DNA from: Anaerolineae bacterium
GTDB lineage: Bacteria > Chloroflexota > Anaerolineae > B4-G1
NCBI GenBank assembly: GCA_046760785.1
Contig: JBHIET010000008.1
Span: 414 to 64,413, forward strand
Direction of reading: 5' to 3'
DNA: 64,000 nucleotides
In this document: positions 23,656 through 51,746 of the stretch, piece after piece
Position numbering within the stretch: the stretch's first letter is position 1
Layout of the letters: every line of letters begins with the position of its first letter
The notes under the pieces: generated by a model
What the model was told of the DNA's origin: nothing
Seen by the model: only the letters and a program-made list of their open reading frames with translations
The model's database searches: none
Made by a program: the position numbers and the translations under genes

Positions 23656-24242
23656 ATGGGAAGGCTTCACCTACCAAGCCCGTGGTCGTTATTTGGCTCC
23701 CCGTCGGACATCTCATCTCAACAAGCCATCGAACGGTACATCGCTATCGACGCTCACAAACAGTACGTCGTCGTGGGCGGTCTCAATGCTCACATGGAGA
23801 TCGTCCTGCCCCTGCGCAGAGTGGACATCAGTCGTTTCTCGGAGTGGGCGCAGAAGCACCTCAGGCTCACCGATGCCGTGGTCATCGAGGCCACTGTCAA
23901 CACCTGGACCCTCTACGACATCATCGCGCCGCTGGTAGGTAGGGCCGTCGTGGCCAATGCCTACCAGGTCAAACTCATCGCCGCCGCCAGGGTCAAGACC
24001 GACAAGCACGACGTCTGGTCCCTGGCCCGCCTCCTCGTCGCCGATCTGATTCCCGAGGTCTGGGTGCCGCCGGTCCACGTCCGCGAACTCCGCGCTCTCA
24101 TCTCTCACCGTCGCCGCCTGATCCAGATCCGCACGCGGGCGCGAAATCGGCTGCACAGCCTGACCCACCGCCACAATCTCATCCCACCCACAGGCAGTCT
24201 CTTCGCTCCCAAACATCGCGATTGGTGGCTCTCCCAGGATCT
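23656..24242 (+). pseudogene. IS110-family (DEDD) transposase, N-terminal half only
   Basis: IAIDAHKQYVVV, VVIEATVNTW, VKTDKHDVWSLARLL and ELRALISHRRRL. The reading frame is cut at 24243 by the IS1-like element, and no C-terminal half follows it. Confidence 0.75.
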
Positions 24243-25114
24243 GGTAGTGTCCCTTAATCGTGTTGGTGGTATAATGCCCCCACACTAGAGGTTCAGGGGG
24301 TGGAAATGGAACATCCACGGTTGGTTTCGGCTGGTTCCTTCTGCTGGAACCCGGATTGCCCGGATTACGGTAAGGTTGATTATGGCAATATCATCAAGTT
24401 CGGTCGAACGAACAAAGGCACACAGCGGTACCAGTGTAAGACGTGTGGCAAGACACACGTAGAGACCAAGGGCACAGTCTTCTATGGCCGTCATCACTCG
24501 CAAGAGACCATTCTGGAGTGCTTGGCCTGGTTAGCCGAGCGGAACAGCCTTGGCAGCCATTCATCGGGTGAAAGGGATCAAGGAGGATACGGTGCTGGCC
24601 TGGCTGAGGGAAGCAGCCAAGCACGTTGAGGCGATCGAGGTACTGCTGTTGGCCAATTACCACCTGACGCGCGTGCAGCTCGATGCCTTGTGGACCTACG
24701 TAGGGCACAAGGGCGAAAAGGGGGGCGTCCTGAAGAAGATGAACGCGGCACCTTCTGGAAGGTGATCTATGGTGACCCGGAGGAAGTGCTTGACTCACTG
24801 GGTGGACACACAGCCTATGTCGAGCGCACGAACCTGACAAGCCGCCAGATGAATGGTCGGTTGGTCAGGAAGACACTTTCCTTACTCCAAGGAGCTGGAG
24901 ATGCTCGAAGCCTCCTGCGCTTGGGAAGACTGGGTCTACAACCTGACACGCCCTGTCAAGACACTCCGAGTTGAGGTCAACGACGGGCAGTGCCGATGGC
25001 AGCCTCGTTCACCAGCTATGGCTGCTGGCTTGACGGATCATGTCTGGACTGTTAAAGAGCTGCTAATGACAGTTGTGGCTCCTGATGCCACCAACACAGA
25101 ATAGGGAGACTACC
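24243..25114 (+). mobile_element. Decayed IS1-family-like insertion sequence (872 bp) with 27-bp imperfect terminal inverted repeats
   Basis: IRL is GGTAGTGTCCCTTAATCGTGTTGGTGG (24243-69). IRR (25088-25114) reverse-complements to GGTAGTCTCCCTATTCTGTGTTGGTGG, a 21/27 match. An InsA-like zinc finger (CPDYG..QRYQCKTCGKT), an [13 protein letters not shown] and [19 protein letters not shown] are spread over frames 3,1,3,1. The central catalytic part appears deleted. Confidence 0.7.
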
Positions 25115-25186
25115 CACTGTTACTCCCTCACTAACTCCCAATCAACTCACCGGTCTGCCATTCTCCAACGTACTCCTCTCGAGTTC

Positions 25187-28075
25187 CTACAGCCCCTCCT
25201 TAGCAACCAGCTCGCGCCCCAGGTCGATTAGCTCCTGCACGGTAGTGATGAACCCCTGGGCGGCCTCAACGCTGGGCGGCGGGGCTTCCTCGTCCTCGGC
25301 GGGTGGGGCGGTGAGGGCGCGGGCGCGGTCCACGCGGGCGGCCAGGTCGGTGGGAACGCGGCCGGGGGCGACCAGTTCCGCCTCCACCAGGCGCGGGGAG
25401 GGTAGTTTTTCGTCAGGCGCTTTGTCCTTAACCAGCGAGATATGCGCGCTCAGCGCCCACCCCAACGCCTGACGCACGGGGCGCATCACCTCCTCCGGGA
25501 AGCCGCCCTCTAGCACGACGGACGCCAATTTGAGTCGCTTGTCGGCGGTATCGAAGCCTTTGTTGGCGCGGCGCAGTTTCTTTTCCAACGCTTTCCGCGC
25601 GTCGTCGCGGGCTGGAGCAGGGATGGCCGGGGCCTGGTAGACGGTGGCCGGTTCGGCCGTCTGCTCCATCACCCCGCCGGTAAGGGCAGCGAGTGCCCGA
25701 TAGCCCTCCTGCTCCATCAGTAAGAGACCTGGCGCGGGGAAGTCGCCGTAGTGTTCGTTCAGCAGCGCTTCGACCTTGGGGCGTAGCTTGGCCGGTTCGC
25801 GATCCACGACGACGATGATGTTCCCGTCTGCAGGAGCGGTGGGAAGTTGCGGAGCCTCCCTGACCAGAAGAACACGGCCCGGATAGCGACCCACCAGCAG
25901 GTCGGCGAAGCCCTGCAGCGTCGGCATAGGCGGGGGGACGGCTTCCGGCTCTGCCTCCGGCGGGACGGCGGTCGGTTCGAGCACCAACTCCGGCCTGATC
26001 GCTTCCCGCGCACCCAACATCACCTCGAGCCGCTGCAAGACGCCCTGTCCCGCGTCCTTGAATGAGAGGTCGGTGACGTCGCTATCCTCGTTGAGCGCTG
26101 CGTCGAAGATGGCCCGCTTGGCGGCCAGGGTGTCGAGCATGCGCTCCTCAATGGTGCCTTTAGCGATCAGGTTGACGACGTTGACGGGACGCGGCTGGCC
26201 GTGACGATGCGCGCGGGCGATGCGCTGGCCGAGTACTGCCGGGTTCCACGGCAGGTCGAGGTTGACGACCATGCTGGCCGCTTGCAGGTTCAGTCCCACG
26301 CCGCCAGCATCGGTGGAGAGAAACACCTTGCATTGGGGGTCTTCAAAGAATTGCTCGATGAGCGCGCCGCGCTTCTTGGTGGGCACAGCGCCGCTCAGCT
26401 TGACCCAGCCCAGCTTGAGTTTTTCCAGCATCGGTTCGGTCAGGTCGAGCATGCGCGTCCACTGACTGAAGAGGATCGCTTTGTGGCCGTTGCTGGCGAC
26501 CTCCTCGTCGAGAATCTCGCGCAGTTCACGCAGCTTGGGGGCGGTCTTCTCCCGATCTTGGGGTTTAATCTCCGGATCGTGGAGCGCCAGGGCGTTGCAG
26601 ATCAGGCGCATCTTGACCAGGCATCCCAGGAGAATCTGGTGTTCCTCCGGTGAGAGGGGACGTCGGCGGGCCTGGGCCATCAACTTGGCGACCCGATGCT
26701 CGTACTCACCGTAGGCCTTCCACTGGGGATCGGTCATCTCGACGAAGAAGTTGCTGTCAATCCGCTCCGGCAGGTCGAGCAGCACCTCCTCGCGCACGCG
26801 GCGCAGGACGTAGGGCGCGATGCGGTGGCGTAGCTCATCCAGGTTCTTGTAGCCCAGCACTTTGTAGGAACCGGAGGGCCGCCGTTCGGTCTCGTAGTAA
26901 CGTTGATTGAAACGCCACAACGGGCCGAGGATGGTGGGATCAATGAACTGGAAGATCGAGTAGAGTTCGTCCAGCCGGTTTTCCAGCGGGGTGCCGGTCA
27001 GGACGAAGGCATAAGGGCTGCGCAATCGCTTGACCTTATCGGCGGTTTTCGTGCGCCAGTTCTTGATTCTCTGGGCCTCGTCGAGGATCACCAAGTCGAA
27101 CTCGCGCTTGGTGATCTCTTCTTCGTCGAAGCGCACCAGTTCGTAGTTGATGATGTTGAAGAACTGGGGGTCTCGGTAAAGCTGACGACGCTGAATCGGA
27201 TTCCCCTCAATGACCTGGACAGACAATGACGTGAAGCGCTGGATCTCCCGTGCCCACTGGTGCTTGAGCGAGGCAGGGGTGACGACCAACACGTGTTGAA
27301 TGTCGCGCAGTTGTTTGAGCAGGGTGGCGGCAGCGATGGCTTGGATGGTCTTGCCGAGGCCCATGTCGTCGGCCAGCAACGCACGCCGGCCGAAGGTCAG
27401 GTGGAGCACCCCCTCCTCCTGGTAGCCGTAGAGCGGCGTCGAGAGGACGCTGAGCGAGCGGTTGCCCTGTTCCACCTGGTCAAGGAACCACTGCTTCTGC
27501 TGTTGAACCGCCTCGATGTCCTGTTGGTTCTTCAGGTAGTCGTGTACCGCCTGATCCACGTGAATTTGATCGCGGTCGCGTTTGGGCAACCGATTCAGTT
27601 CGCTGAGAAACGCGGGCAGGCTCTGAGTGACCTTGCCCTGTAAGACCCCCTCGGCGTCGAAGTAACGGGTCAGCAGTGTGTGCAGTCGCTTGCGCTCCGG
27701 GAAGGGCAGGGTGACGCGGACGGTAGTACGCTCGGCGTGGTGGACGTACATCTGGGCGATGGGCGGAGCCTGGGCGACGAATTCATCCCACTGGTCGGCG
27801 AACTCCTCCCCCAGGTTCGCCAGCACACCTTCGATGTGCTTGCACGTACCGATGGTGTTGGTGCGGTAATCGGGGCAGGTGCAGGTGTTGAGCCGCTCGG
27901 TGAGTGAGCGGACCTGAACGGTGTAGACTCGCTCGGACGTGGATGTGACTTCAAAGGTGCTATAGACCGGGTGTCGGCCCTGGTTGACGATTTTGGCAAG
28001 TTCCTCTAAGCCGCGCCTGCGGCGGCGCTCGATCTGCTCTTGGAGCATATCGGTTTGTTGTTGGGTCTTGTTCAC
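25187..28075 (-). CDS. SWIM zinc-finger SNF2-family ATPase/helicase
   Basis: GTG at 28075 lies 6 nt after AGGAGG. SWIM motif CTCPDYRTNTIGTCKH. SNF2 motifs LADDMGLGKTIQ, DEAQRIKN, LTGTPLENR, FSQW and QRIARAHRHGQ. A ~290-aa C-terminal extension has no family I recognise. Confidence 0.85.
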   Translation of the reverse strand: MNKTQQQTDMLQEQIERRRRRGLEELAKIVNQGRHPVYSTFEVTSTSERVYTVQVRSLTERLNTCTCPDYRTNTIGTCKHIEGVLANLGEEFADQWDEFVAQAPPIAQMYVHHAERTTVRVTLPFPERKRLHTLLTRYFDAEGVLQGKVTQSLPAFLSELNRLPKRDRDQIHVDQAVHDYLKNQQDIEAVQQQKQWFLDQVEQGNRSLSVLSTPLYGYQEEGVLHLTFGRRALLADDMGLGKTIQAIAAATLLKQLRDIQHVLVVTPASLKHQWAREIQRFTSLSVQVIEGNPIQRRQLYRDPQFFNIINYELVRFDEEEITKREFDLVILDEAQRIKNWRTKTADKVKRLRSPYAFVLTGTPLENRLDELYSIFQFIDPTILGPLWRFNQRYYETERRPSGSYKVLGYKNLDELRHRIAPYVLRRVREEVLLDLPERIDSNFFVEMTDPQWKAYGEYEHRVAKLMAQARRRPLSPEEHQILLGCLVKMRLICNALALHDPEIKPQDREKTAPKLRELREILDEEVASNGHKAILFSQWTRMLDLTEPMLEKLKLGWVKLSGAVPTKKRGALIEQFFEDPQCKVFLSTDAGGVGLNLQAASMVVNLDLPWNPAVLGQRIARAHRHGQPRPVNVVNLIAKGTIEERMLDTLAAKRAIFDAALNEDSDVTDLSFKDAGQGVLQRLEVMLGAREAIRPELVLEPTAVPPEAEPEAVPPPMPTLQGFADLLVGRYPGRVLLVREAPQLPTAPADGNIIVVVDREPAKLRPKVEALLNEHYGDFPAPGLLLMEQEGYRALAALTGGVMEQTAEPATVYQAPAIPAPARDDARKALEKKLRRANKGFDTADKRLKLASVVLEGGFPEEVMRPVRQALGWALSAHISLVKDKAPDEKLPSPRLVEAELVAPGRVPTDLAARVDRARALTAPPAEDEEAPPPSVEAAQGFITTVQELIDLGRELVAKEGL

Positions 28076-28136
28076 TTGGTTCCTCCTGAATATCACGAGG
28101 TCTGCTGGAATCCCTGTTCCGTAAATCAGTGCCGTA

Positions 28137-28165
28137 ATGATAGCACAGTATTTGCAAATCATCAA
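28137..28165 (-). promoter_or_regulatory. Candidate own promoter of the SNF2 gene
   Basis: On the minus strand: TTGATG, 17-nt spacer, TGcTATCAT, within the 195-nt gap after the type IIG gene. Confidence 0.55.
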
Positions 28166-28270
28166 ACAGATGAGGACATGTTTCGTGCGTCCACGGGCGT
28201 GCGGGGAGCAGGGCTTCGTGGCCACACCTGGGGGGCCGATTCCCTCAAATCTGTATCTCTGAGTTTCGTT

Positions 28271-31200
28271 CTACACTTGTGAACGACCCTCCACCACTGC
28301 AATCTCCTCCTCCGTCAACCCATACAACTGGTACACGATCTGGTCAATGAGCCGGTCGGTGGCCTCTATGCGGGCCAGCAGTGGGCGCAGCGTCTCCATC
28401 GAGGTCTCCCAGGCGGTGCGAATCCTGGCGGCGGGTTCGTTCTTGTAGGTGTCCACGTCCAGGGCCACGTTGGGCAGCTTGCGCTGGTTGCGCTTGAGGA
28501 TGCGCTCCATCTCGGTCCAGTCGTGCTCGTAGTAGTTGCGCAGGTTGGTCTTGAGCGCCCAGTCGTCAATGGGCCGACCGGTGTAGCCGGCGAGCCAATC
28601 GAGGAAGGAGCGCACCTCGACTTGCTTGGCCTTGTGCATCTCGATCATGCGCTCGGCCAGGTGGGCCAGGATGTCGTGGACGACGTCGGATTGCTCAGGC
28701 TCCGCCGAGAGGCGGGCCTGTACCCAGCGCCCGAACTCTGAATCACGAAAAGCGCGAGAGTCCGCGAAAGGCACGAAACCTCCTTTCGCGTTTCGCGTGT
28801 TTCGCTCCATTTCGCGGGCTTCGTGGTCCAACCCCTCCTCCACCAGTCGCTCTCGCTCCTCCGGCGGGGTGGTGAATGCGATGCGGCGGATGGGCAGATT
28901 CCGAGTCTCGGCCAATACGATCTTTGGGAAATCATCTCTGAGTGCTATGGCGGAACCACGGATGTGATAATGTGATAGAATTCGCGAGTTCACGATGGCT
29001 AAAAGGTAGCCTAATGAGTAGCTGCCATCTTTGACGAGAAGGCTTTGATGGGACTTATTTGTTACAAAATCCTCGTTAACCATCACTGCTTGTAGTCGAA
29101 ACTGTCTACTGATCAGTTCGCGGAGAATGATACGCGGTCCTCGGAAGTACCTCGGCGGTTTGTATTCGGCTATTGATTCGTCATACCTCACGAATCTATT
29201 GCCAGAAATCTCGTAGTAGTATCGACGCAGTTCCCCATCCAGAGCCAACTTGTAGGTTTCCTCAAGTCTCTGTTCTTCCAGGTGGAAGGGAGTGATGCCC
29301 CGTTGAACATCTGCTATTTCCCCCAGCGGCATCGAGCAGGCAACAGTTTTCTGAGCGACCTTCAGATCCTCCTTACCGAGGAAAGACAGAAAGGCTAGTT
29401 CACCGTTTGGATCAAGGTCGCCCGAGAACCAGCTTGCATAATCTACTCTGTATGATCTCGAATCATCGTCATTGATTTGGCTCAGATACTCGCGGCGATT
29501 AAATGTCAGAATCTTTACGGTCCCGCTGATAATCTCAGGAGCGTCGTCCAAGGCATTTTTTCTTTCGACAACTGCAATTGTGGAATCAACGTAGGCGTCA
29601 GGAAATACATCGTATGGTAAGTTCACTATTCTGCTCAAAGCAGACTTTCTTAATACTAGCTCTCGGAAAGGAACATATGATTTTCCTGTCTGCCAACCAC
29701 TGGGCACAATATAGCCTAAGCGCCCTTGCATTCTCAGAATAGCTATTCCTTGCTCAGTGAACGTTGCAAAGCTATCTAAGGTCGCCTGCGTTGAGTCAAA
29801 TGACAATCGCAGGTAGTTATGTTCGGGTCTTGATAGGCTAGCCCCCCATGGCGGATTCCCCACCACCGCATCAAACCCCGCCGCGTCGCCCTTGTGCCGA
29901 CCATACTCGTCGAAGAAGACCTCCGGGAACTCGATCTCCCAGTGGAAGAAGCGCTTCTCCTTCCAAATCTCGTGGGCACGCTCCAGCACCGCCTCCGCCT
30001 GGGCTGCCTGCAACAGCACCGGCTTGCCCTGGACGTACTGCACGCAGGCGTTGTACAACTCCGGCGTCAGCTCCAGCCCAAAATAGCTCGCCGTCCACAG
30101 GTCAGCGATAGCGCGCCACTTGCGCCGCTCCTGTTCCACGGTCTCCTCAAACAGCCGCTCCTTCTCCTTCACGCTGATGAGATCGGCTGTCTCATACTCC
30201 TGAATCTGGCGCATGGCCCCGACCACGCGGTACATGTCCTGGGTAAAGGCGCTTTCGTCCCACATGGCAAGCTGCGAGACCTCCGAGGTTTCGGAAACCT
30301 CGGAGGTCTTTCGCGCCTTTCGCGCCTTTCGCCCCTTTCGCCCCTTTCGCGCCTTTCGTGTCCCCTTTCTCACCGGCAACGCCTGCAGATCGGCCACCCG
30401 CGCCCCGATGAGCGAGTTCCCGCAGCGCAGGTGGTGGTCCAGGAACGAGAGCGGCTTCCCTTTGGCGACCGTCGTCAGCCACAGGCTGAGCTTGGCCAGC
30501 TCTACCGCCAGCGGGTTCAAGTCCACCCCGTAGATGCAGCGCTCGACCACCCGCCGCCGCCAGTAGCTCAGTTCGCTTTCCTCGTCGCCGTCGGCCAGCG
30601 GTTCGGTCACCACCCCGGCCTCGACGATGCGCCGCGCCAGGTAGTCGGTGGCCTCTACCAGGAAATGCCCGCTCCCCATGGCCGGATCGAGGGCGTTCAG
30701 AGCCAGGATGCGGTCGGCAAAGCTGTTCTGCAAGCGGGCCAATTCATCCTTGTATGCTTTTGTCCGCCGCGCCCTGCCTTTGTTCTTCTCCTTCAGTGCC
30801 GCGATCTCTTGCTCCACCGCCTCGGCCTGAGCGTCGGCCAGTGGCCCCAGCGTCTGCTCGACGATGTACTTGACGATGTAGTCAGGCGTGTAGTAGCTGC
30901 CCGTCGCCTTCCGCTCCCCCCGGTCGGTGACCAGGTACACCTGTCCTGCGGGGATGCGTTCCACCACCTTGTCCTTGCCCGCCTCCGCCGCGGGGATGAT
31001 CTCCTCGGTCTTCTTTCTCCCCCTCCTGACGACGACCATCTCTTCAGCAGCATAGGCCATCCGGTACTCCAGCAATCCCTCGTAGATACTGCCCAGGTGG
31101 CGGATCTGCAAATCGCGGTAGTCTACGAAGCTCAATCCCAGGCCCAAGCCCAAGCCCAAACTCCGGCCTTGCCCCCGTCCGGCCTCGGCGCGGGCCAGCA

Positions 31201-32392
31201 GGTCAATCGCCTGAGCCAGGTATCGGTCGCCGATGGTGCGTTCCTCCAGGAAGGGATACCGGTGGGGATCGAACAGACGGCCATCGTAGGCCGGAACGCC
31301 CAACGTCTCCTGTCCGCTGTAGATGATGTCGAACAGGGTGCGCAGGTCATCCCAGATAGTGGCCTTCTTCGCCAGGTAGACCACCCCCTCATCCAGCTTG
31401 TGGGCGATGTCCTCCTTGAGCGCCTTCAGGCTGTACTGCCCGGCGTAGCTGGGGTTATCGTCCACAGGCAGCAATCCCCGGCTCTCGGCGTAGAGCAGGA
31501 ACAGCAGGCGATACAGCAGGATGAGGCAGGCGTCGTGGATGTCGGTGAGATCGGTAGCAGGGTCGAGGGCCTGTTCGGGATCGTCAACCGGGTAGTCGAG
31601 GAAGCCCTGGGCCAGGAGTCGCAACGCCTTGTAGACTCGCTCCTTTAACTCGTCGCCGACCTGTACGGCGTAGGCTGTGCTCTCGGCCAGCACCTCGTCC
31701 AGCCAACAATGCCCCTCGGCGTCAGGACGGAAGGCAGCGGCGCGGAAAAAGAGATAGAAGTAGCGGAAGGCAGCGACGTCCCCCTGCTCGATCAATTGAA
31801 CCAGATCCACCTCGTAGAAGACGTCCAGGCGGAAGCTCGTGTCCTGGTGGTAGATCCGCCAGCGCCGCCCGTTGGAGACCACTCCCCAGGCACACCCTGT
31901 CCGTCGCAGGTAGTAGTCAATCTGGTAGCAGGGGTTGGCGTTGGTGAAGGCATCGGGTGCGCCATCCAATAAGCGCTTGTCGAGGGGGCGATCCCAGCGC
32001 TTGGCGTCGCCCACAGCCAGGACTGTCTCCCAGAAGGCGGGGGTCCCCCACGCGGGGGCAGCAGCCTGCTTGGCCGGCTCGTCGGAGAAGAAAGCATAAT
32101 CAGGCGTGCCCAATGCACCGGTCAGAGGGGGCTGAACGTGATAGACGTGCCCCAGGACGCTGAGGGTCGGACGAATCCACTCCTGCTCCAGGGCGGCCTC
32201 GCTGTAGTGGGGTAGCGCGTCTTCCAACTGTGAGTACAACTCGACGATGGCGTCCAAGGCTTGCTTGGCCTCTGCTTCAGACTCACGCCATATAGCTTGG
32301 TCGGGCAGCACCTGGTTGAGGAAATGGTCAGAGAACAGGTAATGGTTGCGGTGGGTTTCCAAAGGAAGGGCAAGTTGGCGAGTCTTGGACAT
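28271..32392 (-). CDS. Single-chain type IIG/IIL restriction endonuclease - N6-adenine DNA methyltransferase (Eco57I/BpuSI/MmeI-like architecture)
   Basis: N-terminal PD-(D/E)xK-like motif (PDYAFF...VGDAKRW); SAM motif LDPAMGSGHFL; HLRCGNSLIG; catalytic VVGNPPWGAS. A TaqI_C-like specificity region (LLAIVNSRILSHY) and the tail YQLYGLTEEEIAVVE are also present. Confidence 0.85.
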   Translation of the reverse strand: MSKTRQLALPLETHRNHYLFSDHFLNQVLPDQAIWRESEAEAKQALDAIVELYSQLEDALPHYSEAALEQEWIRPTLSVLGHVYHVQPPLTGALGTPDYAFFSDEPAKQAAAPAWGTPAFWETVLAVGDAKRWDRPLDKRLLDGAPDAFTNANPCYQIDYYLRRTGCAWGVVSNGRRWRIYHQDTSFRLDVFYEVDLVQLIEQGDVAAFRYFYLFFRAAAFRPDAEGHCWLDEVLAESTAYAVQVGDELKERVYKALRLLAQGFLDYPVDDPEQALDPATDLTDIHDACLILLYRLLFLLYAESRGLLPVDDNPSYAGQYSLKALKEDIAHKLDEGVVYLAKKATIWDDLRTLFDIIYSGQETLGVPAYDGRLFDPHRYPFLEERTIGDRYLAQAIDLLARAEAGRGQGRSLGLGLGLGLSFVDYRDLQIRHLGSIYEGLLEYRMAYAAEEMVVVRRGRKKTEEIIPAAEAGKDKVVERIPAGQVYLVTDRGERKATGSYYTPDYIVKYIVEQTLGPLADAQAEAVEQEIAALKEKNKGRARRTKAYKDELARLQNSFADRILALNALDPAMGSGHFLVEATDYLARRIVEAGVVTEPLADGDEESELSYWRRRVVERCIYGVDLNPLAVELAKLSLWLTTVAKGKPLSFLDHHLRCGNSLIGARVADLQALPVRKGTRKARKGRKGRKARKARKTSEVSETSEVSQLAMWDESAFTQDMYRVVGAMRQIQEYETADLISVKEKERLFEETVEQERRKWRAIADLWTASYFGLELTPELYNACVQYVQGKPVLLQAAQAEAVLERAHEIWKEKRFFHWEIEFPEVFFDEYGRHKGDAAGFDAVVGNPPWGASLSRPEHNYLRLSFDSTQATLDSFATFTEQGIAILRMQGRLGYIVPSGWQTGKSYVPFRELVLRKSALSRIVNLPYDVFPDAYVDSTIAVVERKNALDDAPEIISGTVKILTFNRREYLSQINDDDSRSYRVDYASWFSGDLDPNGELAFLSFLGKEDLKVAQKTVACSMPLGEIADVQRGITPFHLEEQRLEETYKLALDGELRRYYYEISGNRFVRYDESIAEYKPPRYFRGPRIILRELISRQFRLQAVMVNEDFVTNKSHQSLLVKDGSYSLGYLLAIVNSRILSHYHIRGSAIALRDDFPKIVLAETRNLPIRRIAFTTPPEERERLVEEGLDHEAREMERNTRNAKGGFVPFADSRAFRDSEFGRWVQARLSAEPEQSDVVHDILAHLAERMIEMHKAKQVEVRSFLDWLAGYTGRPIDDWALKTNLRNYYEHDWTEMERILKRNQRKLPNVALDVDTYKNEPAARIRTAWETSMETLRPLLARIEATDRLIDQIVYQLYGLTEEEIAVVEGRSQV

Positions 32393-46224: not shown

Positions 46225-47616
46225 TTACTTTACCGTCAGCGCGTCGCTTTCCGACCGGCCCCACACCTCTGGCGCGTACATCAGATAGACCTGGACCGGC
46301 AGTACGTGAAAGTCGCCATCGTGAGTCGCGCGGGCCAGGTAGGTGTAGACGTGCCGCCCTCGCTCAAGCTGTGTGTTGAAGAAGACCACCCTGTCGTCCA
46401 ACACGTCCTTGCGGTTGTAGCCGTACTCCCGCCAGTGCCTGCCCTCCCCCTCACCGGCGACGAAGCTCGTCGTCGCCAGTCGCTCGTTCAGCCCCTCGAA
46501 GCCCGCCGGCAGCGGGTCCTCGACGATCACGTACCACATCTCCTCCGGTGCTTCGACCGTCAGCCGCACCTGCACCAGGTCGCCGCGGGTGACGCTGCTG
46601 ATGGGCCGGCCGGTGGTCGGGTCGAGGTACTCGCGAGTGACGCTGATTGCGCCTGCGGCCTTGATCCGTTCGCGTGCGACGTACATACGGCTCAGCAGCG
46701 TGTAGTAGAGTGGTCCTTCCCCCCGCTTGAGGATGCGCACGCGGTTGCGGCCCGGCCGGAGGGAAGCGGTCGGGATGGTGATGACTGCCTGGCCGGAGGA
46801 GAGAGGGCCTGAGTGCAGCAACTCGCCGTTGAGGTGGACTTCATAGGTGTAGTCGGCGGCGGACTCGCGGCTGGCGACGACATAGTCGGAGAGTGCCAGC
46901 AGCGCGAAGGCGGTCTCCTGCGTGGTCCCCCAACTGGCGCCTTGCCGCTGTCGCATCAGCCAACGCACCACTTTGGGCACGAGCGGGTTTTGCGGGTCCA
47001 CCCGCGCCAGTCCGTCGAGCGCCATCGCCGTCGTGCGCGTCGTCGAGGCCATCGTCTTCTGCCGGTAGACGCCGTCCTCCAGGCCAGTCGGCCAATACGC
47101 CTCGTCCTCCGTCACCACCGCCTCGGCGGCCAGTTCCGCTACCAGTGCCCGCGCCCTTTCCTCGTCGCCCAGGTGCGTCAGCGCCACCGCCAGCGCCGCC
47201 CGGCTGAAGGGGTCGAGCGTCGCGTCGTCGGCCAGCGTGCGGGTGGGGGTGATCTCGCCATACCCGGCCACGGCCAGCGCGTAGAGGGAGTAGGCGCGCG
47301 TGCGCACGTCCATCCCGTCCAGTTGCCCCCGCAGCCAGTCCGCCCCCCGCCCGATCACCCCCTCGTCCACGGCAAAGCCCGCGTCCCGCGTGGCCGCCAG
47401 CCCAAAGAGGACGTAGGCGGTCTGGTAGGGGTGTGAGGTGTCGTCGAACCACCAACCCCAGCCGCCGTCGTTGTGTTGGAAGCCGTACAGTTTCTGCAGG
47501 CCCAGTTCGACCATCGGAGGCAGGTCGGCCTCCAGTCGCTCGTTCCGCACGCCCAGTTTGTCGAACGCTTGCGCCACCAGCGCGTTGGGGAGCACACGGC
47601 TCATCGTCTGCTCCAC
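46225..47616 (-). CDS. Alpha-2-macroglobulin family protein, C-terminal part (thioester-domain remainder and C-terminal domain)
   Basis: Begins (GTG)-EQTMSRVLPNAL immediately after an in-frame TGA. It continues QHNDGGWGWW with terpenoid-cyclase-like TED repeats. Confidence 0.8.
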   Translation of the reverse strand: MEQTMSRVLPNALVAQAFDKLGVRNERLEADLPPMVELGLQKLYGFQHNDGGWGWWFDDTSHPYQTAYVLFGLAATRDAGFAVDEGVIGRGADWLRGQLDGMDVRTRAYSLYALAVAGYGEITPTRTLADDATLDPFSRAALAVALTHLGDEERARALVAELAAEAVVTEDEAYWPTGLEDGVYRQKTMASTTRTTAMALDGLARVDPQNPLVPKVVRWLMRQRQGASWGTTQETAFALLALSDYVVASRESAADYTYEVHLNGELLHSGPLSSGQAVITIPTASLRPGRNRVRILKRGEGPLYYTLLSRMYVARERIKAAGAISVTREYLDPTTGRPISSVTRGDLVQVRLTVEAPEEMWYVIVEDPLPAGFEGLNERLATTSFVAGEGEGRHWREYGYNRKDVLDDRVVFFNTQLERGRHVYTYLARATHDGDFHVLPVQVYLMYAPEVWGRSESDALTVK

Positions 47617-47619
47617 TCA

Positions 47620-50600
47620 GCCGAATGGGTAGTCAATCAGATACTCCAACCCATCCAGGAGGCTGGAGACGATGGAGGCCGCGAGGCGGATTTCGACGTC
47701 CGAGACGTCGGTGAGTAGATCTGACGGCGCCAGCACCCATTCGCCGACCTCAGTCTCGACTGGGCCGGAGGCGGTGTACAGGTCGGGCATGGCGAGGGGG
47801 AGGATGGGCAGTGAGAGCGCGACCGCGTCCCGGCCGGCCTCGCCGACGACGCCGACGGTCACCTGCGCCTGGCCCAGCCTCGTCGCGATCACCGGCCAGC
47901 CAACGACGGCCGTTCCTCCGGCCTCGACGTACACCTCCTGGGTCGGTTCCGCGTCGTCGAGCGTCAATCCCGTCAACTCGACCCGCGCCGTGACCGTCAT
48001 CCCCGCGTCGGTATAGTTGTGGACGATGGCCCGCAGTGTGACGCGGTCGCCCTGCACCAGGAAGCGAGGCAGGAGCGGGCGCACCAGCAGTGGCTGGGCG
48101 ACGGTCACCCTGGCCGTCTGCTGGCCGACTCGGGTATCCGCCGTGACCGCCCGCACGACCGCCCGCCAGGAGGTGAGCGAATCTGGGAGGCGGACGTGCA
48201 CGTGGGCCACGCCGTTCTCGTCGGTCTCGATGGCCGGGTCCCAGAAGGCGGTGTCGGGAAAGTCGGCGCGGGGGCCGCCGGAGCCGAGGTCACCACCACC
48301 GCCACCGCCACCCATCCCGCCGCCCAGGTAGCGTGTGGGCTGCAGGGAGTCGAAAGTGCGCACCAGGTCGGCGCGGGGGGCGTAGAAGGCGTCAAAGATG
48401 GGGGGCGTCTCGTCCTCGGCTAGGGCGAAAATCGCCTCGTCCACCAGCGCCAGTGAGAACTGGGCTTGCACCGGGTTGCCCAGCGCGTCGCTCACTTGGA
48501 CGGTGAAGAGGGCCTCGTCGCGGGGGGCGTACTTCTCCCGGTCGGGGGTGATGCTCACCGTCAGCCGACGGTCCTCGGCGGGCACGAGGAGTTGAGTGCG
48601 GGCGGTGAGCAATCTCCCCTCCGGGCGCGTCCGGTACCAGTATTCGTTCTCCACAGGCTCGGCCCACACTGCGACGGCGACGTGGACGTTGGGGACGTCG
48701 TCGGGGAGGATCTCGGCCGGCAGCGTGGTCATGCCTTTCTCCAGATGGACGACGGCCTCGCGGCGGGTGGTGCCGCGCTCAAAGGTCAGCAACGCCGGGC
48801 CGCTCACCGGCGAAACGATGACCAGTTGGGCCACGTCGCCCGGCCTGTACTCGGCGCGGTCGGCGCTGATGCGCAGTTCGTCACTCTGGCCGGTGTACCA
48901 CGGGGCGCTGTCGTCGTAGACCCAGAGGTAGGTGCCGGCGGATACGGGCCGCTCTTGTTCGTCGCTCCCTTCGGCGCGGACCTGGTACCAGCCCTGTTCG
49001 GTCACGTGGAGCGTCGTCGCCGCTTCGCCCCGCGCGCCGGTGGTCACCCGCGTCCGGGCGACCGGGTTGTCGTAGGTGCCGGTAGCGGGGTTCCAACCGT
49101 ACACGCCGACGGTGACCTCGGCTCCGGCCAGCGGCCGGCCGTGGTAGTCGCGGGCGAGGAGGCGGACGGGGATAGGCTCGCCCGGCTCGTAGCCGTACCG
49201 TTCGATGTCCAGATGGAGGCCGAAGGTGGCCGGGTGGATGACGACGCGAGCGTGGTCGCTTACCGCCAGGCCGCTCTCGTCGCTCACCGTCGCCTCGATG
49301 CTCCAGGTTCCCCGATCGTCGTTGGGCTGCGTCGGGAGAGTGATGGTGAGGAGGCCGTTGCTATCTGTGCGGCCAATGCGCCGCAGCTCATTTTTGGGGT
49401 AGGTGTAATGCTCCCCGTCCCACCACGGATCGCCGTAGGCGACGTAGGGCAACACTGTGACACGGGCGTTGGCGACCGGCTCGCCGAAAAAGTAGCGCGC
49501 TGCGACGGTGACGGTGAGCGGGTCGCCGGCGATGATTTGATCGTCGTAGGGAGTGACGGCCACTTCATAGTCGGGCTTGCGGTAGGCTTCGACCTTGAGC
49601 GATTGGCGGCTGGTCTCGCCCAGCGCGGCGACTTCGACGTGGTAGGTGCCGACGGTGCCGTCTTCGGCCAGTTCGAAATCAGTGTAGACGGCGCCAAAGT
49701 CGTCGGGTGTGAGGTTGCGGACGGCAAGCACGTTGTCGCGGGCGTCACGCAAACGGACGGTGACCTCGGTGTCGGGAGGGATGAGGCTGTAGGCGGCGTC
49801 GTCGTCGCGGCGGAGCACCGCCCGCACGTGCACCGTCTGGCCGGGACGGTAGATGGGGCGGTCGGTGTAGGCGTAGATGCGGACGGTCTGGCTGCGAGGG
49901 GGCGACTTCCACCACCACGACCAGCCGCCCTCCTCCCACTCGTTGCTCAGTCCGCTGACGGTGAGCTCGTTCCCCAGCCGACCGACGACGATGAGCGGCT
50001 GGGGGTCCACGGTGATGGTTGTGCGCAAGAGGCCGCGCTCCTCGGTGTTGCCCTCGGCGACGAGCGTGCCGTCCCGGTCGTAGACGCGCACCTGCATACC
50101 GGGCACGGGGCTGTGGTTGGCCATCCGCGTCCCCCAGACGAGGACCTGGTGTTGCGCGTACGCACCCCGGCCCACACTGCTCTGCTTCACGACGAGGGCG
50201 TTCCGGCTGAGGACGATGATGAGCTGGTCGCTGATCGTGCCGTAGCGCGCCTCCAGGACGTAAAGCCCCGGCGGGAGATCGGCCGGCAGCGCAACTTCCG
50301 TCCTCCCAGGGTCCTGCCGCCAGCGGGTGATCAGTGGGAGGTCGGCCGTCTCGACTGAGCGATCCTCGGAGGGGCCAATGCCCCGGAAGGCGGAGCAGTA
50401 GCGGTCGAGGAACTGTTCCAGGCTGAGGTCGTAGACGCGCAACTCTATCTGCTGCGCGACTTTGGCCTCCAGTTGTACCGTTCGTTGGCCGTCGGCGTCC
50501 ACCACCTGGACGTTGGGGCCATAGCCGAAGGAGACCCACCCCTCCACCGGCCTGGCGTGGAAGGTCCAGCCGTAATCGCGGCGCAGCACTGCTTCGCCAT

Positions 50601-51549
50601 CGGCGGTGCGGGCGGAGGCGGCGAGAGTGATGTGGTACGATGTGCCGTTTTCGAAAAAGTCATCCGGTTGGAAAATGAGCAGGGAGTCGTTCTCCCAGCG
50701 CAGGCTGCCGGCTACGGTTGGTGTGATGGCGAAGGCAGCCTCGACGCTGGCCCGCTCCATCGGTGCGCCGAACTGCACACGGATGTTGGCGTCGGCCGGG
50801 GCGTGGCTGCCGTGGGATGGGTAGACGGAGAGGATGCCGTTGCCGGTGGTGAACCACCAGCGCGCACTGCCGTCCACCGGCGTGCCGCTCCTATCGCGCA
50901 GGCCGGGGCCGACTTGTACGTGGTAGGTCGTCTCTATCTCCAGTGGCGCGGCCGGCTCGAAGGTTAGAAGGCGGTCTCCTTCCCATCGGAAGGTGCCGTT
51001 GACGGTTGGGGTGATGGTAAAGTTGGCCTGCACGCTGGCCTGGTCTACCGGAAAGCCAAAGTGCAGGCTGATGGCGGTATCGCATCTTGCTCCCTTGCTG
51101 GAGAGAGGCGGGGATTGGTATCGGATCAGCGGCGGCGTGCTAAAGCTGGAAAAGAACGTTTTGCCCAGATGCACGGTATAGGAGGTTTCGGGTGCCCAAC
51201 CGGGCCGGGGGATGAAGACGAGAGTGCGGTCATCGCGCCACGTCGTCTGCCCCTCGGTCGGCGGCTCGATGGTGAGCGAGGCGGTCTGCGGGTCTACCGG
51301 CCGCTCGTGGGTGATGACGAGGGGGGTGTGAAGGTTGTCCAGGCGTGCTCCGAGGCCGGGTTTGATGCTCACAATCTTGGGAGAGGTGAGAGGGTGGGAT
51401 TGCGGGCGCGGCAGCGGTGAGCGGAAGTGGGTTGTCGGCGCGGGCAGGGGGGAGGACCAGGGCGCAGGCTCACCCGAACAGGCCGCCAGGCAGACGACCA
51501 GGAGGAGGGCCGAGATGACCTGATGGGAGGGAGTGTAGCGGCTTGTCAT
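47620..51549 (-). CDS. Alpha-2-macroglobulin family lipoprotein, N-terminal part (Ig-like and MG domains) ending at an in-frame TGA
   Basis: ATG at 51549 follows AAGGAG. Lipobox ALLLVVCLAAC, then repeated Ig-like/MG domains. The ORF ends ...LEYLIDYPFG-TGA, where homologs have the CxEQ thioester Cys. Confidence 0.8.
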
Positions 51550-51746
51550 CGCTGGACTCCTTGAGTTGGCTGGTACCCCCATCGCGGGGGCTGGGACTGA
51601 ATCTAGGCAAGTTTAACATATCACATTCGTCGTGGACTTGCGTGACGCTCGGCCTACGCTTTGCGTCGTTCGATCCGCCGCTTGCCAACCGTTTCTCGGA
51701 CGGAAAACCGACGGCAGCGACCGGCACCGGTATCCGGTAACGGCGC

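Follow-up and report, generated by a model that had tools for sequence, protein, structure and literature searches.

Why does a gene for an alpha-2-macroglobulin (A2M) carry a stop codon exactly where the cysteine of its thioester should be encoded? The question is raised by a 64,000-nucleotide stretch of DNA from an Anaerolineae bacterium (contig JBHIET010000008.1; we call the whole stretch that was analysed the window), the minus strand of which reads CTG ATT GAC TAC CCA TTC GGC TGA GTG GAG CAG ACG ATG AGC across the site and translates as L I D Y P F G * V E Q T M S. We consider it probable, at roughly 0.78, that the TGA (47617..47619) is a selenocysteine (Sec) codon and that the gene encodes one exported, lipid-anchored A2M of about 1774 residues, with Sec in place of its thioester Cys (YPFG-U-VEQ). 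Comparison with relatives, together with agreement with most of the model for the bacterial Sec insertion sequence (SECIS), makes the gene a strong selenoprotein candidate. Sec had been put forward as one candidate explanation in an earlier reading made from the letters alone (the sequence-only reading), and it is now backed by the conservation of the TGA, by purifying selection and by a downstream nucleotide block that is invariant only in genes with the TGA. A conserved TGA to which such a block is coupled is the standard comparative signature of a putative Sec codon.

Read through the TGA, the A2M gene occupies 46225..51549 of the minus strand and consists of 1774 codons plus a TAA stop in a single frame, with an alternative ATG at 51582, upstream of its start. 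Gene finders divide it into two open reading frames (ORFs) which share this frame, 47617..51582 (gene-caller start 51549) and 46225..47616, with products of 1310 residues (P0049) and 459 residues (P0001). The sequence-only reading had taken the two flanking ORFs for one complete A2M, and this is borne out by the full Pfam architecture of the joined translation: Big_5, bMG3, MG2, A2M_BRD, A2M, TED_complement and bMG10, in other words the array of macroglobulin (MG) domains, the bait-region domain, the A2M domain, the thioester domain (TED) and the C-terminal MG domain of the family. The C-x-E-Q motif of the family is not present as such, the Cys codon being TGA, and would read U-x-E-Q if UGA is Sec. 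The TED_complement match marks the start of the thioester domain at 47326..47673 (minus strand; residues 1304-1419 of the 1785-residue translation from 51582), and the TGA, residue 1322 of the same translation, falls inside it, 18 residues from its start. That the TGA sits exactly at the thioester Cys codon, as the sequence-only reading had also claimed, follows both from the minus-strand reading and from alignment to solved structures, in which it falls on the Cys of GCGEQ in TEP1 (2pn5); the region of the site also matches E. coli YfhM (4ziq, 5a42), Salmonella A2M (4u48), human A2M and C4. The GAG CAG codons at 47608..47613 encode the Glu and Gln of the xEQ motif, which are kept in all TGA-containing (Sec-type) sequences (E in 21/21, Q in 21/21).

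A predicted lipoprotein signal peptide with the lipobox L-A-A-C (MTSRYTPSHQVISALLLVVCLAAC) lies at 51478..51549 of the minus strand, as read from the translation by the established lipobox rule. The predicted export signal is carried by the N-terminal piece only, and the C-terminal piece is without one. TGA is also the normal stop of 22 of the 46 ORFs in the window, and for this reason a genome-wide reassignment of UGA was rejected. A scan of the window for further TGA-interrupted ORFs was uninformative, as DNA of 62% GC contains many long spurious ORFs.

The relatives of this gene were drawn from 80 species-representative genome loci, 80 metagenome loci and several exact-protein look-ups, about 1.7 Mb in total, which cover the A2M genes with their flanks only. 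With the site-spanning region as query, a protein search returned as closest relatives (52-66% identity) dozens of proteins of about 465-490 residues that correspond to the part after the stop only, and nearly all of these start MSRVLPNA…, from the first ATG past the stop. Proteins that span the site with a Cys are at most 55% identical to the window's A2M. An alignment of orthologues, which the sequence-only reading had proposed as a check, places a stop at the Cys codon in 32 loci (29 of the main set and the later L172, L174 and L175), representing 23 distinct sequences from three lineages with amino acid identities down to about 37%. This stop is TGA in 32/32 cases and TAA or TAG in none. 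Cys-type genes make up 133 loci of the main set, with TGC in 89 and TGT in 44, and three further loci also have TGC or TGT. Among the TGA-type loci are seven GTDB species representatives, which are named Chloroflexia or Anaerolineae metagenome-assembled genomes. The window's own A2M gene, TGA included, is found again without any difference in a contig of the independent Logan assembly, seen in three samples.

Both sides of the TGA behave as coding sequence. Protein identities among the main set's 21 distinct TGA-type sequences are 44-99.7% (median 49%). No further stop occurs over at least 250 codons upstream and about 460 codons downstream of the TGA. Pairwise ratios of nonsynonymous to synonymous divergence (dN/dS) range from 0.17 to 0.52 upstream of the TGA (250 codons) and from 0.13 to 0.44 downstream (about 457 codons), with dS values of 0.33-1.3. 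With ratios this far below 1 while dS reaches 1.3, the comparison indicates that both halves have long been maintained as coding sequence by purifying selection while the TGA was present. Two features by which bacterial selenoprotein genes are judged are found here, a UGA that faces a conserved Cys in homologues (a Sec/Cys pair) and UGA-containing orthologues with intact coding sequence on both sides. In the protein database, TGA-type genes exist only as two fragments, and there is no full-length entry containing U.

Some features of the relatives are worth recording beside these counts. The residue two positions before the site (within 47620-47631 of the window) is Phe in 20 of 21 Sec-type sequences (YPFG-U) and Tyr in 115 of 123 Cys-type sequences (YPYG-C), with the L102 and L174 lineages keeping Tyr; the Phe may accommodate the larger atom or may merely reflect phylogeny. 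A C-terminal extension of about 200-300 residues past MG10 occurs in several relatives, among them the Sec-type L027 and L109, the downstream ORF of which encodes about 690 residues, and a ‘DFDRDC’ motif is present in this extension in P0249, P0317 and P0330. One apparent divergent TGA-type fragment, P0372, was rejected as a Cys-type gene cut by the end of its contig, and the fragment P0400 was left out of the typing since its contig ends 9 nucleotides upstream.

The evidence that most directly concerns the RNA lies just downstream of the TGA. Counting the U of UGA as nucleotide 1, nucleotides 17-32 (47588..47603, minus strand) form an invariant 16-nucleotide block, U GAGC CGUGU GCUC CC, which is the candidate SECIS core. 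Codons +6 to +9 within it are AGC CGT GTG CTC in every distinct TGA-type sequence, while equally conserved neighbouring residues (Y-4, P-3, G-1, E+2, P+10, N+11, V+14, A+17, F+18, L+21 and G+22) vary synonymously. The codon alignment has 133 columns in which a degenerate amino acid is invariant, and the codon itself is invariant in only five of them, four being +6 to +9; if only the 95 columns with at least four-fold degeneracy are counted, a single codon is kept in these four alone. In these genes CGT accounts for 7.5% of Arg codons and CTC for 22% of Leu codons, and the four codons taken together have, for this peptide, a probability of 0.0034 per independent lineage.

This conservation goes together with the TGA. 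The 12-mer AGCCGTGTGCTC is present in 29/29 stop-type loci of the main set and in 0/133 Cys-type loci (2-8 mismatches), and it is found again in L172, L174 and L175. The 15-mer TGAGCCGTGTGCTCC occurs 33 times in the approximately 1.7 Mb, and in 32 cases a TGA lies exactly 16 nucleotides upstream. In the sole remaining occurrence, on the 1-kb metagenome contig L162 (1-110), the exact block and the downstream A2M sequence are preceded by unrelated sequence, with TAA CCG replacing TGA GTG; this looks like a truncated, chimeric or rearranged copy. In Cys-type genes that also encode MSRVLP the sites of the block drift, to CGT GTT CTT in L149, CGT GTT CTC in L170, CGC GTC CTT in L171 and CGC GTG TTG in L082. 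The comparison points to a constraint at the RNA level that is coupled to the TGA and lost in Cys-type genes, and it is this comparison with relatives, and not the fold, which provides the signal beyond chance. Two of the Cys-type genes, L170 (3359-3420) and L149 (about 316-380), neighbour the Sec clade, share the peptide MSRVLPNAMV and retain the block with only one or two synonymous mismatches (GTG to GTT, CTC to CTT). These could be recent Sec-to-Cys revertants with a decaying SECIS, or they could represent the state before the SECIS arose.

Two mutually exclusive hairpins, which use the same 3′ strand, can be formed with this block. The first (hairpin A; 47589..47614, minus strand), one of two proposed in the sequence-only reading, pairs G6..G15 with C22..C31 around the loop AUGAGC. 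The second (hairpin B; 47590..47602, minus strand) is our proposed SelB-binding apical stem-loop and pairs G18-A19-G20-C21 with G27-C28-U29-C30 around the loop C22-G23-U24-G25-U26. According to the bacterial SECIS (bSECIS) model, the loop should have 3-9 nucleotides and the upper stem 4-16 base pairs with a minimum free energy of -7.5 kcal/mol or lower (PMC13188914); a G should also occur within the first two nucleotides of the loop, as a rule with G or U next, and UGA and loop should be 16-37 nucleotides apart (PMC13188914). Hairpin B agrees with the model in its 5-nucleotide loop CGUGU, its 4-base-pair stem, its G at the second loop position followed by U and its spacing of 18 nucleotides. 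Hairpin A has a spacing of 12 nucleotides and fails both the spacing and the loop-G rule, in keeping with the remark in the sequence-only reading that its own hairpins fitted canonical SECIS spacing poorly.

Hairpin A is the minimum free energy fold in many relatives (-10 to -19 kcal/mol). In the alignment 90.1% of its cells are paired without any compensatory change; the 9-28 pair is broken in 10 of 19 sequences, the 6-31 pair in five and the 15-22 pair in two, and only the variant with ACG changed to GUG still pairs, through wobble pairs. Covariation cannot decide between the two hairpins because the block never varies. What remains are the third codon positions: with the peptide M-S-R-V-L fixed, C21, U24, G27 and C30 are free, and each is as hairpin B needs it, in the pairs C21-G27 and G18-C30 and as the U after G23, although C21 is weakly informative as AGC is already the usual Ser codon here. 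A change of G25 to U, which would improve hairpin A, is found in two Cys-type genes with the same peptide and never alongside TGA; this may count as a small point for hairpin B. We regard hairpin B as a better SECIS candidate than either hairpin of the sequence-only reading. Both of those hairpins do exist at the offsets given there, but the 5′ arm of the first is not conserved, and the second (AACGC...GCGUU) was rejected since its codons vary synonymously.

Folding programs add little to this picture. When hairpin B was forced together with its flanks, no conserved lower helix appeared, and RNAalifold on 19 Sec-type sequences returned a weak, different consensus of -6.6 kcal/mol without covariation. 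The folding energy of the region as a single sequence is no better than that of shuffled sequences (z = -0.38), and an Rfam search of a 300-nucleotide region at E up to 10 gave two chance matches only. In one group of relatives (L001, L008, L009, L012 and L090, the ‘TEQ’ subclade) a 6-base-pair hairpin at nucleotides -12..+7, CCGUUC-GGCU-GAACGG, partly sequesters the UGA; it is absent from the subclade of the window.

It is instructive to set hairpin B beside the SECIS of E. coli fdhF, the sequence of which was taken from NC_000913.3. Nucleotides 15-31 of fdhF, GGUUGCAGGUCUGCACC, have an energy of -4.2 kcal/mol and present the loop GGUC at positions 22-25. In the minimal fdhF SECIS, U17, G23 and U24 are conserved and U17 and G23 contact SelB (PMC8659212). 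These three bases stand at exactly the fdhF distances from the U of UGA in the A2M block as well. Both elements are small apical hairpins about 11-14 nucleotides past the UGA with similar stability (-3.8 here versus -4.2 kcal/mol), with G23 and U24 in the loop and U17 on the 5′ side. They differ in the loop, which is the 5-nucleotide CGUGU here and GGUC in fdhF, and in the stem, which has four base pairs here and six in fdhF. The fdhF pairing of nucleotides 15-19 with 28-31, in which U17 is bulged, is not reproduced: here nucleotides 18-21 pair with 27-30 and U17 lies just 5′ of the helix, flanking it instead of being bulged inside. A G15-C31 pair is possible in most Sec-type sequences but not in all. 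Unlike fdhF, the A2M element is also without a conserved lower helix and faces competition for its 3′ strand from a longer alternative hairpin.

The competition between the two hairpins could itself be part of the mechanism. Hairpin A would exist ahead of the ribosome, and once the UGA occupies the A site the 5′ arm of hairpin A would move into the mRNA channel. Its 3′ strand, now unpaired, could then fold into hairpin B (GAGC-CGUGU-GCUC), which would present U17, G23 and U24 at the distances from the UGA found in the minimal fdhF SECIS, and SelB carrying Sec-tRNA(Sec) would bind hairpin B and deliver Sec. We infer this switch from hairpin A to hairpin B from what is known of the ribosome footprint and from the precedent in E. 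coli.

Several observations weigh against Sec insertion and against hairpin B as its signal. At -3.8 kcal/mol, hairpin B alone falls short of the energy demanded by the bSECIS model; hairpin A is thermodynamically favoured over it and accounts equally well for three of the four synonymous constraints (U24, G27 and C30). Hairpin B is paired in 100% of the sequences but is invariant, hence without covariation, and an Rfam search of the whole window at gathering thresholds gave no match. As to the machinery, ARAGORN detected no tRNA-Sec in the 64-kb window or in the related loci, Pfam identified no SelA, SelB or SelD among 39 of the 46 ORFs of the window, and tblastn with the E. coli SelA, SelB and SelD proteins gave no match in 1.6 Mb of A2M-flanking loci. 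The lack of Sec machinery in the window and the A2M flanks says nothing about whole genomes. The MetRS encoded in the window shares at most 89% identity with any database protein, and its named matches belong to uncultured Thermoflexia, Anaerolineae or Chloroflexota metagenome-assembled genomes. Sec use is established in the phylum, where selenoproteins have been reported in Chloroflexi (PMC1794560) and a tRNA-Sec with 8/4 structure in Chloroflexota (PMC5389517), and the Dehalococcoidia are rich in selenoproteins (PMC13326102).

The alternative that survives best, though unlikely, is that the gene is truly split. The TGA would then end an exported protein composed of the MG and bait-region domains, the C-terminal TED and MG10 part would be produced by reinitiation at the ATG five codons further on or would not be made at all, and the conserved block would serve termination or reinitiation. 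Two ORFs are indeed called everywhere by gene finders and no Sec machinery is present in the available sequence, but the stop interrupts the TED domain after 18 residues, leaving an N-terminal piece that is a predicted lipoprotein and a C-terminal piece without a signal peptide. The four codons from the stop to the ATG are in frame and the xEQ residues are kept in all sequences, and no stop other than TGA occurs at the site. The window does have a GGAG 6 nucleotides upstream of the downstream ATG (47606-47614), which would suit reinitiation; this motif is lost in half of the sequences, which have GAA, the ATG itself is replaced by CTG in the TGA-type L088, and the invariant block lies 3′ of the ATG and not at a ribosome-binding position. 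Some reinitiation is possible in the window's gene, where the GGAG stems from the V-E codons and is also found in Cys-type genes.

A shade less probable than a split gene is the recoding of UGA to an amino acid other than Sec, either to Cys by a tRNA-Sec-like tRNA-Cys(UCA) with a SelB paralogue, or to Trp or Cys through SECIS-independent near-cognate read-through. A system of the first kind exists: selC* tRNA-Cys(UCA), together with selB*/cysS*, was shown to insert Cys at UGA (PMC5389517). It would also need a SECIS-like element, so that the block does not discriminate between Sec and Cys. However, selC* has been reported in Firmicutes, Thermodesulfobacteria, Nitrospirae and Proteobacteria and not in Chloroflexi (PMC5389517), and a Cys encoded by UGA would have no evident advantage over one encoded by TGC, which is in use at related loci. 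Read-through with Trp would abolish the thioester, yet the Gln partner is conserved. Finally, the sequence-only reading had offered a sequencing error and a recent nonsense mutation as alternatives. For an error of sequencing or assembly, or for a gene newly inactivated in this way (a pseudogene), a single TGY-to-TGA change would suffice, and many of the sequences are metagenome assemblies. Both are practically excluded because the same TGA is conserved in 32 loci from many samples and assemblers, an identical copy exists in an independent assembly, no other stops lie nearby, dN/dS stays well below 1 upstream and downstream while dS reaches 1.3, and the block is coupled to the TGA.

In a neighbour-joining tree of the C-terminal region, 20 of the 21 distinct TGA-type sequences of the main set fall in one clade of 23 tips, inside which three Cys-type sequences are nested. 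A second lineage, L102 and L172 (72% identical to each other), is placed inside a Cys-type clade and is nearly as close to Cys-type genes (67-69% identity). The third, L174 and L175 (…YPYG-TGA-AEQT-ATGAGCCGTGTGCTCCC…), is 37-40% identical to all others. The identical block is common to the three lineages; the TGA with the same 16-17 nucleotides can be seen in L102 (from 163), L172 (from 3243) and L174 (from 5693). This distribution suggests either an ancestral Sec that gave way to Cys on many occasions, or the movement of a cassette of TGA plus block between A2M genes by recombination. Identity of the block at about 37-40% protein identity would likewise fit an unusually sequence-specific interaction between SelB and SECIS, or a mobile TGA-plus-SECIS cassette.

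What a Sec at this position would do can be proposed from the family. In A2M and C3 proteins the motif Gln is the acyl partner of the thioester. The simplest model, and we infer the most likely one, is an intramolecular selenoester between the selenol of Sec and this Gln, because the motif Gln is kept in every Sec-type sequence. Such a selenoester would resemble the A2M thioester but react more readily, and would serve the covalent capture of attacking proteases. Whether an entire clade of Chloroflexota A2M proteins uses an encoded Sec in this manner, for an internal Sec-Gln selenoester that would be a higher-energy version of the thioester warhead of C3/C4, A2M and the thioester-containing proteins (TEPs), is a proposal to which we give about equal chances of being right or wrong. 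To our knowledge no natural protein selenoester of this kind is known, and our literature searches returned none. Peptide ligation exploits the high reaction rates of synthetic selenoesters (PMC10946927), because of which a Sec-A2M could plausibly be a faster or more sensitive protease trap.

In its overall design the protein resembles the A2M of the YfhM/ECAM type (E. coli YfhM, 4ZIQ/5A42; Salmonella A2M, 4U48), with which it shares the lipoprotein signal, the MG array, the bait-region domain, the TED and MG10, an alignable TED and the motif Y-P-x-G-[C/U]-x-E-Q with its Gln kept. It differs from them in having TGA as the thioester Cys codon, in the Phe at -2 that is typical of the Sec-type sequences (20/21) and in its low identity (E about 1e-9 to 1e-10) to the proteins of solved structure; the window's A2M is matched by none of the NCBIfam models. 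The Cys-type Chloroflexota A2M proteins (for example P0011/L170, L149, P0002 and P0016) have the same architecture and are 45-55% identical across the region, but their genes have TGC or TGT, and the 12-nucleotide block is absent or carries 1-8 mismatches with variable synonymous sites.

An A2M with Sec at the thioester position would be a candidate new selenoprotein family. A 2026 review lists 119 prokaryotic selenoprotein families or subfamilies, some annotated only in GenBank (PMC13188914, Table 1), and macroglobulin, thioester, YfhM and the relevant Pfam accessions are absent from it. Neither macroglobulin nor thioester appears in the BSepDB, deep-Sep and 2022 review papers, and a full-text literature search combining selenoprotein and macroglobulin gave nothing relevant. 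As in known selenoprotein families (PMC13188914, BSepDB), there is a Sec/Cys homologue pair and the UGA is directly followed by a stem-loop within the coding region. In most characterised selenoproteins Sec is a redox centre (PMC13188914), commonly within UxxC or CxxU, whereas the Sec of this exported protease trap would carry an acyl group.

Sec would thereby act outside the cell, and not in redox chemistry, in the family of complement C3/C4, A2M and the insect TEPs, which would provide a natural experiment on why thioester chemistry uses sulphur. A Sec-A2M could trap proteases faster, or do so at lower temperature or pH. If confirmed, the family is a new one whose genes are at present broken up by gene finders into pairs of ‘hypothetical’ ORFs in public assemblies by the dozen, and C-terminal fragments that all start just past a conserved Cys would be an effective search route to other missed selenoproteins. 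The compact, invariant SECIS candidate would be a manageable system for studying SelB recognition beyond Proteobacteria and Firmicutes, and it might help to engineer Sec insertion since the element encodes only M-S-R-V-L-P.

Elsewhere in the window, a gene on the minus strand at 28271-32392 encodes a 1373-residue type IIG restriction-modification methyltransferase resembling Eco57I/MmeI. It adjoins a gene for a 1012-residue SNF2-family helicase (25187-28225, minus strand), near which lies a fragment of an IS110-family transposase (23656-24288). The G+C content is 0.54 at 28-30 kb and about 0.62 elsewhere in the window, and the region 23656-32392 looks like a horizontally acquired defence island.

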